This document shows, piece after piece, positions 1 through 56,768 of a stretch of DNA of 64,000 nt (positions are counted from its first letter, which is position 1; each line of letters opens with the position of its first letter). A program made the translations under genes and the position numbers. The stretch lies in sequence record MK327943.1; one strand, written 5' to 3'. This stretch comes from Escherichia phage vB_EcoM_G53. A model generated the notes under the pieces. The model had not been told where the DNA came from and ran no database searches. It worked only from the letters and a program-made list of their open reading frames with translations.

Positions 1-2214
1 TTATTTGGCCGCTTCCACGGCCTTCATGAATTTAACGATTTGAGCGACCTGTTCTTTGGAAAGAGTACCACGTCGTCCCATGTAGTCTGACACAATATGA
101 TAATTGGTTTCGAATTCAATAACCATTTTATCATCATTATCGTAAGCATTATCTTTAAGCTTATCGAAAATTTTAGCACACAATTCTAACTTCTTATTCA
201 GGTCTGTATTAGTAGCACCTGCGAATCGATTCCATCCCCAACGATTATTTACTGTTGAGAGTTTTGCAAAGTCTTTACTGATTTCTTTGTTCTTAGAGCT
301 AAAATACTTACTAAGGAAGTTAAGCTCTTCATTACGAGTAATATGATTCAAATAAGGCTGTGCTCTACGACTTGGTGATACATACTCATCATAATCCACT
401 TTATCGATTAGCGTAATATAGTCATTAATTGATTTTTCGAACAAGCATTCTACTTCACCAAGTTTACGAGCTTTCTTAGCAATCTGTGGACGAACTACAG
501 TGAACTCTTTAATACCTGACAAATCAGCAATACGGGTCAAGAAATTGGAGTCATAGTTCAACCAACCTTTATCTGCGTCAAGACATTCAGCATTAGAACG
601 ATTACGAACTATAGCATAACCTTGGATTTCATCAGCTTCACTCGCTGGAATAAAGAGATCTTCTGATACCCAAACATCGTTTTCATTCTTAAAGAACCGA
701 TGAGCACTCGGGGATTTAGGACGAGGCCCATTAGAACGAGTCTTGACTTCAATCCATGGCTTAACGATTTGTAAAAGCTCTGAAGTCTTGTACATGTTAA
801 TGTTGTCGCCATCAAAGATAACTTTAAGACGTTCCAGAAGTTTCATTGCATCTTCGTCTGTAGGGTCAACGAATAGTACGCTTTTACCAAAACCGCGTGG
901 AACTTTACCGGTTAATTTAACCTCGTCTTTAGACATTTCAATTGAATTAAGAGCTCGCATTAATGGAACGCGTCCCTTAACGTCGTCAATAACAATTTCA
1001 ACGTTTTTAATGTTAATGCCAATCAGACTGTTAATTGAAATAGTTGTCGATGAGCTACCACTTTCACGAATACGACGAAGACGAGGGGATTCAACGATAT
1101 CGTATACGACACCAAGATTACACCACTCAGGCCCCATTTTAAAACGTTTGTACAACTCAGAATAAGTTAGTTGTTCTTTAGAGTATTTCAGTGATTCAAT
1201 ATTAGACCCAGCCTTTTCCATGTATTTACGAGCGGTATAACCAAGAGAATCAATTTCACGGAACACATGACGCGGGTATTTACAATCAATCCATTTCTTA
1301 GAATCTTCAGCGAACAATTTAGCATCGATTTCTGCAACGCGTTTATGGATATTTGCTACTGTACGTTTATCAAATGACAATGCTTCACGAGACGGGGCTA
1401 CATCTAGTTCGCCCATAGGGAATTTAATATAAGCTGTAGTGCATCGCGTCATCATCCATGTTTGTTCTTTAATAACACTTCCGATTGGATATACAATACC
1501 ACCATAAACAGCCATGATATTACCACGTTCACCCCATGGAGCTTCCTTGGCCAAATATACATCGTCAAATTCAGGAAAGTATTTAATATCTTTAACACCA
1601 CGAACTTCTGCAATATCACCTAGAGGACGCATAACATATGCAATTTCAGATGCGAACTTTTCAAAATCTTCTGGGTTAACAGGCACAACTACTTCAACGC
1701 CGGTCCGGTCATCAGGTCCCATCTTATCTACGAAGGTTGGCTTAATCTGTGGACCCGTGTCATCTTGGTAGATTACGTAACCACGAACTTCACCGTTGTG
1801 ATAAGACGTAAGGTTAAACGTATCAGTATATGCTAGTGGAGCTTTAGAGCCGAGTCCGAATCCACCAATGAAATCGTTACTCGATGTTTTAGTTGAAGCA
1901 AAATATGAGTTATAGATTCCTGGCTCTTCGTCATTACCTCGAATGGTGAAATCGCTCATACCAGGACCAAAGTCTCGAACTACAAAACGTGGGTCTAAAC
2001 GACCTGGAGCCTGAACAATAAACTTATCGGTGCAACCATTAAGAATTTGTCCATCGATACAGTTTGTGATTAATTCACGTACACAAGCCAATTCTTTGTT
2101 TGTATAAAGGTCATTAGATAAAATCTTATAAACTTTGCTATTGCCTTGAATAGTGAATGCTGTGCTCTTACCACCTGAACCAATAATCGTTTCTTTAGCC
2201 GTTTCAATAATCAT
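1..2214 (-). CDS. rIIA: rIIA protein (lysis inhibition / membrane integrity protector), GHKL ATPase-like N-terminus
   Basis: 737-aa ORF with stop at 1..3; GHKL-type motifs (ELITNCIDG, DFGPGM, GGFGLGSK); position next to gene 39 as in T4. Confidence 0.8.
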   Translation of the reverse strand: MIIETAKETIIGSGGKSTAFTIQGNSKVYKILSNDLYTNKELACVRELITNCIDGQILNGCTDKFIVQAPGRLDPRFVVRDFGPGMSDFTIRGNDEEPGIYNSYFASTKTSSNDFIGGFGLGSKAPLAYTDTFNLTSYHNGEVRGYVIYQDDTGPQIKPTFVDKMGPDDRTGVEVVVPVNPEDFEKFASEIAYVMRPLGDIAEVRGVKDIKYFPEFDDVYLAKEAPWGERGNIMAVYGGIVYPIGSVIKEQTWMMTRCTTAYIKFPMGELDVAPSREALSFDKRTVANIHKRVAEIDAKLFAEDSKKWIDCKYPRHVFREIDSLGYTARKYMEKAGSNIESLKYSKEQLTYSELYKRFKMGPEWCNLGVVYDIVESPRLRRIRESGSSSTTISINSLIGINIKNVEIVIDDVKGRVPLMRALNSIEMSKDEVKLTGKVPRGFGKSVLFVDPTDEDAMKLLERLKVIFDGDNINMYKTSELLQIVKPWIEVKTRSNGPRPKSPSAHRFFKNENDVWVSEDLFIPASEADEIQGYAIVRNRSNAECLDADKGWLNYDSNFLTRIADLSGIKEFTVVRPQIAKKARKLGEVECLFEKSINDYITLIDKVDYDEYVSPSRRAQPYLNHITRNEELNFLSKYFSSKNKEISKDFAKLSTVNNRWGWNRFAGATNTDLNKKLELCAKIFDKLKDNAYDNDDKMVIEFETNYHIVSDYMGRRGTLSKEQVAQIVKFMKAVEAAK

Positions 2215-5502: not shown

Positions 5503-5527
5503 ATTCTATCATCCGAAATCTAAAGCA
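5503..5527 (-). promoter_or_regulatory. middle (MotA-dependent) promoter candidate for gene 39
   Basis: minus strand TGCTTTA box, 12-nt gap, TAGAAT -10; followed by GAGGAG SD and the ATG at 5480. Confidence 0.45.
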
Positions 5528-5545
5528 AAAAGGGCCGAAGCCCTT
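5522..5545 (-). terminator. intrinsic terminator (UUCG tetraloop hairpin + U-tract)
   Basis: minus strand aagggc-ttcg-gccctt followed by ttttgcttt, immediately after the stop of the 145-aa ORF. Confidence 0.55.
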
Positions 5546-5981
5546 ATTTAAATTTAATTTTCTGAAGTGTATCAATTGCAGCTAAACGCCCTTGTTCACT
5601 TTTAACTGTAATGACCACATCGCCTGATACGATCACCGAACCATCAACAAATTCTATAGAGCCTTTTTTGAAATCGACAGCTGTATCTGGTTCCGGAACT
5701 TCTTCAAAGAATTTAAATTCTGCACCATAAATCAGAATATCACCTTGCATACTATGAATAGTTCGGCCATAATCACCTACGGCTTCTACAGCAATCACTG
5801 AAACACCATAACCAATCATCTCTTCCACAATAAAATCTTTAGACAATAAAGTAGTATGCAGATTAGTATTAAGACGTTTACCAGTCGTATTAAGAATTCT
5901 CAAGAAATTATCTTCCTGTCCTTTGATAATACGATATTTCTTACCAACTTCAAAACCTTTAAAAGACGTATTAAAAGCCAT
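5544..5981 (-). CDS. hypothetical protein
   Basis: 145-aa ORF between gene 39 and the Zn-ribbon ORF. Confidence 0.5.
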   Translation of the reverse strand: MAFNTSFKGFEVGKKYRIIKGQEDNFLRILNTTGKRLNTNLHTTLLSKDFIVEEMIGYGVSVIAVEAVGDYGRTIHSMQGDILIYGAEFKFFEEVPEPDTAVDFKKGSIEFVDGSVIVSGDVVITVKSEQGRLAAIDTLQKIKFK

Positions 5982-15002: not shown

Positions 15003-15037
15003 AAAAAAAAGGAATCCCGAGGGATTCCTTAAATTAT
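15003..15037 (-). terminator. intrinsic terminator after soc
   Basis: minus strand ggaatcc-ctcg-ggattcc hairpin followed by T10. Confidence 0.7.
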
Positions 15038-15274
15038 TTAACCACTTACTGGTGTAGGGGTAAACATTGCAGCGTTCTTAGTTTTCCAGTCAGCTGCATC
15101 AGAAACTACAGTAGAATACGCCGCCTTTTCAGAAGGAAAGGTCTGATAATGAGAATCTGCAATCCGATGTTCGTTTGAATAAATCTCAAACGGTACAGAA
15201 ACTTCCATACCTTTAACTTCTTTACCTTCACCAGCAGGATGCGTAAAGGTTTTGATGTTTACATAACCACCCAT
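15038..15274 (-). CDS. soc: small outer capsid protein Soc
   Basis: 78-aa ORF; GYVNIKTF...HYQTFPSEKAAYSTV matches the T4 Soc sequence as I recall it. Confidence 0.8.
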   Translation of the reverse strand: MGGYVNIKTFTHPAGEGKEVKGMEVSVPFEIYSNEHRIADSHYQTFPSEKAAYSTVVSDAADWKTKNAAMFTPTPVSG

Positions 15275-40649: not shown

Positions 40650-40865
40650 TTATCTCATTAAATTAAAATAAAAACGTCCATCCTCTTCAATACAGAACTC
40701 ATATTCAACTGGAGTCCCGTTTATCGAAAATGACACGTCATGTGGGTTCAAAGGGTCGATGTCAAAATTAATTTTAAATTCACGACCCAACAGTTTTACC
40801 AAATAAGGGATTGCTTCGTCAAAAGGTTCTTCTAAGTAGTTAGAGATGTCAATTGTCATCCTCAT
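40650..40865 (-). CDS. small hypothetical protein (start placed at MRMTID)
   Basis: ORF 40650..40943 trimmed to the ATG near the gene 55 stop. Confidence 0.35.
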
Positions 40866-41406
40866 ATAAAAAATCCAAACTAGGCGAATCGCTAACAACT
40901 TCCTTCTTTTCAGCCCCAGGAGCTTTATAAGCGGATTCTTCATAATGCGTCATTTTATCGTAGATGTCTTGAATAAATGTTTCATCTACCAACGCTACCA
41001 TATCATCGTCATGACTGTCGTAGACATTATGAACGAAGTAACTATATTTCTTTGCAACTTCCTTACGTTCTTTTTTGATACGTTGGACAAAAGCATTAAA
41101 ACAAGCTCGAGTTATGTATGCATGTGGGTTATTGTACTTAGTTTCGTCGAAATTATGAAGTCCCTTAATAGAGGCTTCAATCCCATCTGCAATCATCTCC
41201 TGCTTCCAAGACTGGGTATATCCTGAAAAGTTGAAACGTTTGGACAGGCCTTCGGCGATAAGCATAATTGCTAAACCGATGGTATCATTCTGACGAATAA
41301 TTTTGTTTGGGTCTTTATTATTTAAGAGCTCCTTTTTCCACTCGATTATAGCGGCGAGAAGCTCTTTATTATTCACATAGTTATTTTTAGGTTTTTGTTC
41401 AGTCAT
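40849..41406 (-). CDS. 55: late transcription sigma factor gp55
   Basis: 185 aa from the ATG at 41406 (MTEQKPK...); near-identical to T4 gp55 as I recall it over [39 protein letters not shown]. Confidence 0.9.
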
Positions 41407-44850: not shown

Positions 44851-45324
44851 TCATTTAAGCGATTTCCTCAGTTGTTTTTTAAATGACGTTACCATTTTAG
44901 CTTTGGTATCGTCTTCATTATAACTAAAACCGTTTGAAAGCATTTCTGCAATCATTTCTTCTTTAGCTAATCTTGAGAACTCTTTAGTTTTGTCCGGAAC
45001 AAAATTAGGATGGATGTTATTAGCAGAATAATCTTGTTTCAAATAAGCAAGAAGAGCTTCAAGCCATTCGAGGTAGTCGACATCACGACCTTTAAGACCA
45101 GAACGGTTGAACTTATGCTTCATTTGACCTTCTGCTGCGTTGCACAGATTACAGAGTAACCCACGAACTCTACCTGCTTTTGGCCCGTTTAATTCGTGGT
45201 CGTGGTCAAGATGGTTACCTTGAACATCAGGGTCTAATTCACGGTGGCAAATAGGACACTTACCGTTCTGTGCATCATAAAATTTTTGTTTTTCTTCTTT
45301 GTATAATTTGCCAGATAATAACAT
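44851..45324 (-). CDS. 49: endonuclease VII (Holliday junction resolvase) gp49
   Basis: 157-aa ORF; zinc/HNH-like motifs CPICHRELD...NHLDHDHELNG...CNLCN; same length as T4 EndoVII. Confidence 0.85.
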   Translation of the reverse strand: MLLSGKLYKEEKQKFYDAQNGKCPICHRELDPDVQGNHLDHDHELNGPKAGRVRGLLCNLCNAAEGQMKHKFNRSGLKGRDVDYLEWLEALLAYLKQDYSANNIHPNFVPDKTKEFSRLAKEEMIAEMLSNGFSYNEDDTKAKMVTSFKKQLRKSLK

Positions 45325-45330
45325 AATAAA

Positions 45331-45361
45331 CCCTTACCATATATAGATAAGGGTATTTATA
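45331..45361 (-). promoter_or_regulatory. gene 49 control region: late promoter TATAAATA plus SD-sequestering hairpin
   Basis: TATAAATA at 45354..45361 (minus); mRNA hairpin ccctta-N11-taaggg whose 3' arm carries the SD-like AAGGG 7 nt before the ATG. Confidence 0.55.
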
Positions 45362-45363
45362 AT

Positions 45364-45543
45364 TTAGTAAACGTTATAAAAGTCTCGATGAAAACGTTTA
45401 TACTGTCGAATCATTCTTTTAGTAGGACGTGTTACCGAAATGATTGAAGTCCTCATGTTTGGATTGTTTGGAGCCCCAATCATAATAAATTTCCAGGATT
45501 TTTGGCCGTTTGTTCTTTCGCCATAAAATAGTTCAGTTTTCAT
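45364..45543 (-). CDS. small basic protein, RPTKRQ-motif family (59 aa), not in ORF track
   Basis: MKTELFYGERTNGQKSWKF...VTRPTKRMIRQYKRFHRDFYNVY; AAAGG SD. Confidence 0.4.
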   Translation of the reverse strand: MKTELFYGERTNGQKSWKFIMIGAPNNPNMRTSIISVTRPTKRMIRQYKRFHRDFYNVY

Positions 45544-45552
45544 AATAAACCT

Positions 45553-45966
45553 TTAACTTAAACGTCTTTCTAAATATTCAACGTATTCCGCTGCGGCTTG
45601 CATCAGATTACCTTCATAACCGTCATTATTTTCTTGGGCGGCTAATTTAGCTAAAGCATAAGAAATACGTTCACCTTCGAATTCGCCAAGTCCACCATCA
45701 CAAACTACTTGGTCAATTTCTTCGAGTTCATCTATTGAATGGGATTCCCAGAAGCACCAAAGAGAAGTATCACGGTCATAGATGCAAAGTTTCTCACCTG
45801 TGTTCAACATCACTTCAATAATGCCATGGTCGCCATAACCATCTTCGGTAGTAGTACCAATTACCTTGATGATCGTATCTTTCTTTAATTCAGGAAACTT
45901 GACTTGTAGTTCTTCATCTTCTTTAACAATCTTGAACCATTTACCGCGAGTTTCAGAAATATTCAT
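45553..45966 (-). CDS. hypothetical acidic protein (start placed at MNISETRGKW)
   Basis: ORF 45553..46104 trimmed to the ATG just after the stop of the upstream small ORF. Confidence 0.4.
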   Translation of the reverse strand: MNISETRGKWFKIVKEDEELQVKFPELKKDTIIKVIGTTTEDGYGDHGIIEVMLNTGEKLCIYDRDTSLWCFWESHSIDELEEIDQVVCDGGLGEFEGERISYALAKLAAQENNDGYEGNLMQAAAEYVEYLERRLS

Positions 45967-45967
45967 A

Positions 45968-46138
45968 TCAATATTCTCTATAAAAGTTACGATGAGAACG
46001 TTTAGCTTTGCGAAGCTGACGTTTAGTAGGACGAACTGTAAACGGTTGTCCAGAGAAAAAATTCGGATCGGTTTTAATAAGCAAATACCAATCATGCTTG
46101 CCATTTTTTAATAAACGGTACAATAATTTAACTTGCAT
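45968..46138 (-). CDS. small basic protein, RPTKRQ-motif family (56 aa)
   Basis: ORF-track start at 46165 is a TTG; ATG at 46138; C-terminal VRPTKRQLRKAKRSHRNFYREY. Confidence 0.4.
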   Translation of the reverse strand: MQVKLLYRLLKNGKHDWYLLIKTDPNFFSGQPFTVRPTKRQLRKAKRSHRNFYREY

Positions 46139-46266
46139 AATAATCTCTTCCCATCTCCATATCAATTAATTCATTTATTGAAGGTTCATCATAACACGTT
46201 TCTTCGTCGTTGTAAACTGTTTCGACGTCCGGCTCGACTGTCTCCCATCGAGCCGAATACCATGGC

Positions 46267-47604: not shown

Positions 47605-47909
47605 TATAATGTTCTCTCAAATTTGTGGAAGCATTTACGGCATTTCAATTTCAAGTTATCAGTGGTCCAGTTAACCAATTGGACTTGGATAGTTCCACAT
47701 TCCGGACACGGGTGTTTTGCTGCCGATTTGGCAGCATTTTCACGTCGTTCAACCATTTTCATTATTTCGTTCCATGCCGGAGGAACAAACTCTTCTTCAC
47801 CGTGGATTTTATCTCGCTGAACAAATTCAATCTTTGAACTATCGTCAATAAACTTAACCAAGCCATGATTAGTGCTCATATCAATATCCTCTAAAAGACG
47901 TAGTTTCAT
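47604..47909 (-). CDS. zinc-ribbon protein
   Basis: 101-aa ORF with CPECG...CRKC. Confidence 0.45.
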   Translation of the reverse strand: MKLRLLEDIDMSTNHGLVKFIDDSSKIEFVQRDKIHGEEEFVPPAWNEIMKMVERRENAAKSAAKHPCPECGTIQVQLVNWTTDNLKLKCRKCFHKFERTL

Positions 47910-56240: not shown

Positions 56241-56543
56241 TTAGATAGATGTAGGCTCTAATTTTATTTTCATGAACTCGGCAAATTGTCTGGCAGTTTT
56301 TATGCCTTGTTCATGACATTCAAATGCATCATCACAGGGACTATTTTTGTAATGCTTTGCCATATACTTATAGAATTTTTCAGAATTCTCGACATTTTGA
56401 ATTTCAAACAAAGTATATACGTTTTTAATCCCTGATTCCATAAAGTTATCAAAATATGGGTCGATATGTGCAGTACCAACGATAGGAGTTGTTGCTGCAA
56501 AAAACCCCAGCATCGCTATGACAGCTATCGCTCTTAAGGCCAT
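56241..56543 (-). CDS. secreted/periplasmic protein
   Basis: 100-aa ORF with N-terminal signal-like hydrophobic segment. Confidence 0.45.
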   Translation of the reverse strand: MALRAIAVIAMLGFFAATTPIVGTAHIDPYFDNFMESGIKNVYTLFEIQNVENSEKFYKYMAKHYKNSPCDDAFECHEQGIKTARQFAEFMKIKLEPTSI

Positions 56544-56555
56544 ATAGGCCTCCTG

Positions 56556-56768
56556 TTAATTTTGGCCAGTATTTATTTTTCGCCTTTGGACGGCCTTAAC
56601 ATCTGTGAGGTATTTTTCCAGCTTGCGCTTGCGTGTATAATCAGCTTTAGAACCGGTTTGACGGATATCCTCGTTTAAATGAGAAATAGAATGTCCTAAT
56701 TCTCTTCGGATTTCATCTAATTGGGTTACAGTAAGATTACGAAGTTGTCTTTCGTTTAATTGCTGCAT
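56556..56768 (-). CDS. small basic protein
   Basis: 70-aa ORF. Confidence 0.4.

Follow-up and report, generated by a model that had tools for sequence, protein, structure and literature searches.

Gene 49 and its genomic neighborhood

The DNA analyzed here is a stretch of 64,000 nt from Escherichia phage vB_EcoM_G53 (sequence record MK327943.1), which is referred to below, in its full length, as the window. The source phage is a Mosigvirus, that is, an RB69-like relative of T4, and over the gene 49 region, it is approximately 95% identical to several RB69-like phages. The gene of interest is a 157-aa open reading frame (ORF) on the minus strand that encompasses both the catalytic and the dimerization domains of endonuclease VII (PF02945, 5.1e-20; PF09124, 1.6e-25). 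The homologs of this ORF carry the endonuclease VII annotation, and the HLDHDH motif of gp49, along with the Cys residues, is invariant. In RB69-like relatives, the genes are arranged in the order nrdC ... pin - small ORF - 49 - nrdD, with nrdD overlapping the end of gene 49. The genes and signals that surround the leader of gene 49, together with the gene for the sigma factor that is relevant for its expression, are the following:

40852..41406, minus strand: gene 55, the late sigma factor reading TATAAATA (tblastn, 99.5% identity to RB69 gp55 over 185 aa)
44851..45324, minus strand: gene 49, recombination endonuclease VII, 157 aa (Pfam PF02945 and PF09124; 83% identity to T4 gp49)
45324..45322, minus strand: ATG start codon of gene 49
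45364..45543, minus strand: 59-aa ORF (DUF7279), located directly upstream of gene 49, with the TAA stop at 45366..45364; its equivalent in RB69 is RB69ORF087c
45553..45966, minus strand: pin (PinA protease inhibitor), upstream and co-oriented (Pfam PF10465, 3.5e-46)
46188..46216, minus strand: match to a sigma-70/T4-early-like promoter (TTTACA-17-TATGAT, with TG in front; consensus scan only), from which read-through transcription might originate

The late sigma factor gp55 is encoded within the same 64-kb window as the gene 49 leader. The genes upstream of gene 49 are co-oriented and tightly packed, and read-through RNA would enter the leader hairpin described below from the DUF7279 ORF. The start position of pin was set by comparison with the 414-nt homolog of this gene in phage SA79RD, where the site homologous to 46188..46216 is annotated as T4-early-like. 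By consensus scan only, early-like promoter matches were found on the minus strand at 46216 and 47936, and no terminator-like sites were detected on this strand between 46188 and the hairpin.

Two paralogous small ORFs of the DUF7279 family (PF23945), at 45364..45543 and 45968..46165 on the minus strand, flank pin. The C-termini of the two paralogs are similar and basic (RPTKR..R..KR.HR.FY..Y).

A late promoter box joined to a hairpin that contains the Shine-Dalgarno sequence

The short region between the DUF7279 ORF and gene 49 contains a compact element, with only 40 nt from the box to the AUG, all of which reads on the minus strand and consists of the following parts:

45354..45361, minus strand: late promoter box TATAAATA, promoter positions -13 to -6; exact consensus, with the TAAATA core invariant in 45 of 45 distinct gp49 leaders
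45346..45354, minus strand: 5' arm of the hairpin, ACCCUUAUC, the first base of which is the last A of the promoter box (RNAfold)
45348, minus strand: predicted late transcription start (+1, A), the sixth nucleotide past the box, as expected from the -13 to -6 rule
45339..45345, minus strand: hairpin loop UAUAUAU, 7 nt, the length and sequence of which vary freely among relatives
45330..45338, minus strand: 3' arm of the hairpin, GGUAAGGGU (RNAfold), which covaries with the 5' arm
45331..45336, minus strand: Shine-Dalgarno (SD) sequence UAAGGG, wholly inside the 3' arm and 6 nt from the AUG

The mRNA reads, in order, UAC UAA (stop of the 59-aa ORF, 45366..45364) - AU - UAUAAAUA (45361..45354) - CCCUUAUC - UAUAUAU - GGUAAGGG - UUUAUU - AUG (45324..45322), where the 6-nt stretch TTTATT is the spacer between the SD and the start codon. 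In the T4/RB69 lineage, including the window, the hairpin is followed by UUUAUUAU. According to RNAfold, the helix consists of 9 bp, from A45354-U45330 through C45346-G45338, including one U-G pair, and the minimum free energy of the hairpin is between -11.7 and -12.2 kcal/mol, with folding z-scores of -2.6 relative to dinucleotide shuffles and -5.2 relative to mononucleotide shuffles. The same 9-bp helix is kept in the predicted folds of sequence contexts of up to 300 nt. The best match to the anti-SD is UAAGGG, which forms a duplex of -5.0 kcal/mol with the 3' end of 16S rRNA, and all six nucleotides of this SD are paired in the stem.

The first-pass annotation of this DNA had reported TATAAATA at 45354..45361, without naming the strand, followed by ccctta-N11-taaggg. 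The box is indeed present there, on the minus strand, and the remaining strings are correct both in sequence and in position (ccctta, 45353..45348; N11, 45347..45337; taaggg, 45336..45331). The arms pair as had been proposed, but the size of the hairpin needs to be amended because RNAfold yields a stem of 9 bp with a 7-nt loop rather than 6 bp with an 11-nt loop. An SD-like sequence had also been placed in the 3' arm ahead of the endonuclease VII ATG, and this assignment is borne out by the complete pairing of UAAGGG 6 nt from the ATG and by the identification of the gene with Pfam.

Phage SA79RD carries a late promoter annotation at the orthologous box. In RB69, the leader of which is nearly identical to that in the window, the late promoter Pl:47792 was predicted at the orthologous box, and a terminator (47738..47760) was called at the same site (Nolan et al. 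2006, PMC1524935). These are separate automated calls, in Additional Files 5 and 6 of that work, the terminator having been called by TransTermHP; the accessible part of the paper contains no joint reading of the two calls as an SD-masking arrangement.

On the plus strand, the reverse complement of the element (45334..45363) contains a sigma-70-like match at 10 of 12 positions (TTACCA-18-TATAAT), which is oriented antisense, towards the upstream ORF, and is probably a by-product of the AT-rich palindrome; the scanned region contains 22 such matches compared with the 16.3 expected.

The combination of box and hairpin within the window

The box alone proves nothing because TATAAATA is not over-represented in the window, with 4 copies in 64 kb as opposed to the 7.1 expected by shuffling. 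The four exact copies (15306, 45354, 53402 and 56793) all lie on the coding strand of the region, the minus strand, and three of them match late promoters that were predicted in RB69 by Nolan et al., namely, Pl:15279, Pl:47792 and Pl:58753 (PMC1524935). The combination of a box with a hairpin, as found upstream of gene 49, is unusual. For each of the window's 50 TAAATA boxes, the 30 nt that begin with the final A were folded, and the gene 49 site ranked second in the stability of the downstream fold. A covariance model (CM) of the element produced a single match in the 64 kb, the gene 49 site itself. An Rfam search with the element gave no meaningful match, both matches being far below the gathering scores.

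The two other strong folds in this ranking, downstream of the TAAATA boxes at 15040 and 5550 on the minus strand, are GC-rich hairpins with a tetraloop and a U-run (-13.9 and -8.9 kcal/mol; 15010..15045 and 5520..5555, respectively). These hairpins look like ordinary intrinsic terminators, not SD masks.

Conservation and covariation across gp49 leaders

To define the leader set, two scans of IMG/VR with gp49 (42-89% protein identity) were combined with T4 and RB69, resulting in 45 distinct box-to-start sequences; the distant endonuclease VII-domain loci L116-L127, which are not T4-like and lack such a leader, were omitted. At every T4-like locus, an (N)NTAAATA box abuts a hairpin and is located 19-33 nt before the start codon. 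Promoter positions -13 and -12 vary among the 45 leaders, in line with the published description of late promoters (PMC1524935); in Aeh1-like phages, the box is CTAAATA, which is the reported late consensus of Aeh1 (PMC1524935). In approximately 40 of the 45 distinct leaders, the 5' arm starts exactly at the A in position -6, the last base of the box. Throughout the set, the 3' arm ends 0-8 nt from the start codon, and the loops comprise 4 to 12 nt.

The stems differ by lineage while staying complementary. The lineage-specific arms include the following pairs (5' arm / 3' arm):

CCCTTATC / GGTAAGGG; GGTTCATC / GAGGTGAACC; CTCTTATC / GAGGTAAGAG; CCTCTATA / TATAGAGG
GAGTCAT / ATGACTC; GTCCTAT / ATAGGGC; AACACC / GGTGTT
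CTATCATC / GAGGTGATAG; CAGTTTTC / GAGGAAACTG; CCCATATC / GATATGGG

Over the 45 leaders, the mean folding energy is -10.5 kcal/mol for the full element compared with -1.0 kcal/mol for the RNA that begins at the predicted +1, and the mean folding z-score is -4.6, with values below -1.5 in 43 leaders. In 42 of the 45, half or more of the SD nucleotides take part in base pairs.

Covariation was assessed in two alignments. In the MAFFT alignment, which was not fitted to the structure (29 rows), 90% of the cells are paired, compared with 41-49% when slid; compensatory changes are present at 5 of 8 pairs, none of the 500 shuffles reaches the score, and the covariation value is 0.570 (slid, at most 0.169). 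After CM realignment (36 distinct rows), 93% of the cells are paired (36-46% slid), with compensatory changes at 7 of 8 pairs, again none of 500 shuffles reaching the score, and a covariation value of 0.668 (slid, at most 0.137). Because the CM realignment uses the structure as its template, it is biased in favor of pairing, but the unfitted MAFFT alignment leads to the same conclusion. RNAalifold recovered only 3 pairs from the raw MAFFT alignment because the variable loops misalign several lineages, and explicit pair counting and CM realignment were used instead. One of the stem pairs is a U-G wobble in 27 of the 36 rows of the CM alignment, a dominance that fits an RNA transcribed in the sense direction and not a DNA cruciform.

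One of the exceptions to SD pairing, locus L103 (IMGVR_UViG_2974770551_000001, 1130..1200), contains TATAAATA inside the loop of a hairpin with the arms TCCTCCAAT / ATTGGAGGA. Here, the SD (GGAGG) is paired to an arm that precedes the box, and the whole 5' arm lies upstream of the late promoter. This leader keeps the logic of SD masking with a different geometry.

In the window, 9 nt separate the TAA of the upstream ORF from the 5' arm; the corresponding distance is 11 nt in T4, and in most lineages the stop lies 2-13 nt ahead of the 5' arm (2-8 nt in many relatives), often overlapping the late box (TAATAAATA, TGATAAATA; loci L048-L114). Ribosomes that terminate on the upstream ORF might partly open the hairpin, which would make the mask leaky.

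Predicted timing of gene 49 translation

The late consensus box sits at positions -13 to -6, of which -13 is poorly conserved (PMC1524935). Initiation at a promoter of this type would take place about 6 nt past the box, in a manner coupled to replication and dependent on gp33 and gp45. Because the box occupies these positions, +1 is predicted to be A45348, inside the arm, and because this base is the seventh nucleotide of the 9-nt 5' arm, the late RNA would keep only 3 potential pairs. In read-through RNA, the predicted cost of opening the SD is 11-12 kcal/mol, with 60, 150 or 300 nt of upstream context, and the predicted probability that the SD is unpaired is 0.00. For RNA starting anywhere from -2 to +3 (45350 to 45346), the predicted cost drops to about 3.5 kcal/mol, and the folding energy of the predicted late-form RNA is -1.9 kcal/mol. 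These predictions agree with two earlier suggestions from the first-pass annotation, namely, that late transcripts start inside or after the 5' arm and that the early read-through mRNA is masked.

The interpretation of the leader as a combination of SD masking with a late promoter is supported, and the locus is very probably the ortholog of the translational timing device of T4 gene 49. The switch would operate as follows. Gene 49 is the last in a co-oriented string of early/middle genes (nrdC ... pin - DUF7279 - 49), and transcripts initiated upstream would run on through its leader. The read-through RNA would fold into the 9-bp hairpin (45354..45330, minus strand), with the SD UAAGGG in the 3' arm; 30S subunits would bind such RNA poorly, and the junction-cutting nuclease would not be made from its AUG. 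Late in infection, RNA polymerase with gp55 would recognize TATAAATA (45361..45354) and, the last base of the box being the first base of the 5' arm, would start transcription some 6 nt downstream, at about A45348, within the arm. Without six of the nine arm nucleotides, the late RNA would form no hairpin, and the SD would be exposed. Endonuclease VII would then be translated at the time when it is required, for resolving branched DNA before packaging. For phage G53, the analysis shows the sequence elements, the identity of the gene, a gene for gp55, the energies of the predicted folds, and conservation with covariation, whereas where the late RNA begins, whether and how much read-through RNA is made, and how strongly translation is affected are inferred. 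As a counterpoint, the SD is weak (-5.0 kcal/mol), and the late RNA is predicted to retain a residual opening cost of 3.5 kcal/mol.

Alternative explanations for the hairpin

The features of the hairpin can also be read in terms of transcription termination. Under this explanation, the hairpin would be mainly a rho-independent terminator of the pin - DUF7279 unit, gene 49 would be expressed late via the late promoter alone, and the pairing of the SD would be incidental. What the element shares with such terminators, in the T4/RB69 lineage, is a stem-loop followed by a U-rich stretch (UUUAUUAU), and it is called as a terminator by a simple scan (9 bp, 4 GC pairs, tail TTATTATGTT), in an ARNold annotation at the orthologous site of phage WFL6982 (-11.0), and in RB69, by TransTermHP at 47738..47760 with a confidence of 98 (PMC1524935). 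However, the stem is AU-rich, with GC pairs accounting for 4 of the 9 in the window, and the U-tract is interrupted (tail U-UUAUUAUG in the window). Furthermore, the U-tract is not conserved whereas the SD pairing is: only 1 of the 45 distinct leaders shows a run of at least three U immediately behind the stem, which in most lineages reaches up to or into the AUG. It is this lack of conservation of the U-tract that leads us to reject termination as the conserved function. Neither of the two features that are conserved, the pairing of the SD (42 of 45) and the start of the stem at -6, is required in a terminator. In addition, nrdD, which overlaps the end of gene 49, is a prereplicative gene and, behind a terminator, would need read-through or a promoter of its own. 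We therefore regard termination as an improbable main role of the hairpin, and the terminator label that automated programs give it is probably misleading. A partial, lineage-specific role as a terminator or attenuator, added to the masking, is possible, although on balance we do not favor it.

Stable stem-loops at the ends of cistrons often serve as processing or stability elements, and the conserved stem upstream of gene 49 could be one of these, acting as a barrier to 3' exonucleases that protects the upstream mRNA or as an RNase III/E site, and not as a translational mask. The 1988 study of T4 gene 49 by Barth and colleagues reportedly considered cleavage besides sequestration. Such a function leaves unexplained why the SD is always in the 3' arm, with that arm ending 0-8 nt from the start codon, and why every lineage has the late promoter joined to the 5' arm; besides, the element matched no Rfam family or known processing motif. 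Compared with masking of the SD, this explanation appears very unlikely.

The inverted repeat might also act at the level of DNA, as a cruciform, possibly a substrate of endonuclease VII, or by modulating the late promoter as a palindromic protein-binding site, given that the repeat overlaps promoter positions -6 to +3 and that the product of gene 49 cleaves cruciforms. The dominant U-G wobble (27 of 36), however, corresponds to a C-A mismatch on the complementary strand, so that the symmetry exists in RNA only; with 9 AT-rich base pairs and a 7-nt loop, the repeat is poorly suited to cruciform extrusion; and for a protein-binding site, the arms change too freely, while staying complementary, around loops of 4 to 12 nt. 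The dominant wobble and the freely varying arms and loops led us to reject the DNA cruciform, and we give a DNA-level function hardly any credence. Finally, a chance AT-rich inverted repeat next to a chance TATAAATA, both functionless, is effectively refuted by the covariation across lineages and the strongly negative folding z-scores. Chance is also at odds with the unique CM match in the window, the second rank among 50 TAAATA boxes and the same arrangement in T4, even though the box is not enriched (4 copies compared with 7.1 expected) and AT-rich DNA yields many weak hairpins.

Comparison with T4 gene 49 and with other late switches

The SD masking proposed here for G53 was established as the mechanism of gene 49 expression in T4 decades ago. 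In the T4 study of 1988, according to its abstract, the first ribosome-binding site (RBS) can reportedly be hidden in a hairpin on long early transcripts, and late transcripts are said to begin just upstream of this site. The T4 leader reads AATAAATA-CCCTTATC-TATTTAA-GGTAAGGG-TTTATT-ATG and shares with the leader in the window the identical arms (ACCCTTATC / GGTAAGGGT), the SD, the TTTATT spacer and the ATG, with the box abutting the arm in the same register. The box itself is the full consensus TATAAATA in the window and AATAAATA in T4, and the predicted fold consists of 9 bp with the 7-nt loop UAUAUAU in the window compared with 10 bp and a 5-nt loop in T4. The predicted late start in T4 that corresponds to A45348 is NC_000866 46879, on the minus strand. 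The first-pass annotation had described the locus as a mirror of T4 gene 49. This is accurate for the arms, the SD and the spacer but not for the gene directly upstream of gene 49, which is the 59-aa DUF7279 ORF in the window and pin in T4, nor for the internal GUG start.

In T4, codon 53 of gene 49 is an internal GUG start that gives rise to a nested coding sequence (NP_049693.2), whereas in the window (45166..45168, minus strand) and in RB69, this codon is GTT. Codon 53 is GTG in only 5 of the 47 gp49 genes examined. Judging from the codon, the nested short product is probably not made from gene 49 in the window, and the nested short protein looks T4-specific.

A broader class of switches follows the same logic, in which a late gene resides within early or middle transcription units, the RBS is enclosed in a hairpin on long RNAs, and a late promoter is positioned to leave the 5' part of this hairpin out of late RNAs (PMC2988022, PMC3014915). 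On long transcripts of T4 gene 49, e, soc and I-TevI, an RNA helix sequesters the SD or the AUG (PMC3014915); for gene 49, the sequestration is attributed to Barth et al. 1988 (Genetics 120:329) in a review (PMC2988022). The logic extends to T4 e (lysozyme), soc, I-TevI, I-TevII, I-TevIII and segB, and to mobE of Aeh1 (PMC2988022, PMC3014915). The genes and sequences involved in the e, soc, I-Tev and segB switches of T4 and the mobE switch of Aeh1 are unrelated to the gene 49 leader. The gene 49 module differs from these other switches also in that the stem begins exactly at the last base of the box, which makes it very compact.

Implications for gene 49 regulation

Because endonuclease VII cuts branched DNA, its early production would endanger replication and recombination intermediates. 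A hairpin combined with a late promoter explains how a late function can be placed inside early transcription units without being expressed early. The device being already known from T4, its presence in an RB69-like phage is expected, and the occurrence described here is mainly an aid to annotation. A modest added value comes from the conservation of the module, with compensatory changes, across very divergent T4-like phages; a further by-product is the observation that the nested internal start of T4 is not conserved.

Conceivably, the element integrates the use of the late promoter and the masking of the SD with a partial unmasking by ribosomes that terminate on the upstream ORF, allowing leaky, coupled early expression, and in the T4/RB69 lineage also controls, by partial termination or attenuation, how much read-through enters 49-nrdD. 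We consider this composite rather doubtful. A family-wide, multi-function view of gp49 leaders (Straboviridae) was not found in the accessible literature.

A second arrangement of a similar kind may exist elsewhere in the window. At 56543..56582 on the minus strand, upstream of a 100-aa ORF (56241..56543) that may resemble T4 rI, AATAAATA precedes ACTGGCCAAAATTAACAGGAGGCCTATATG. Here, a stem of 4 bp (GGCC/GGCC) overlaps the SD AGGAGG (-5.9 kcal/mol). This site may be a second, weaker combination of a late promoter with an SD hairpin.
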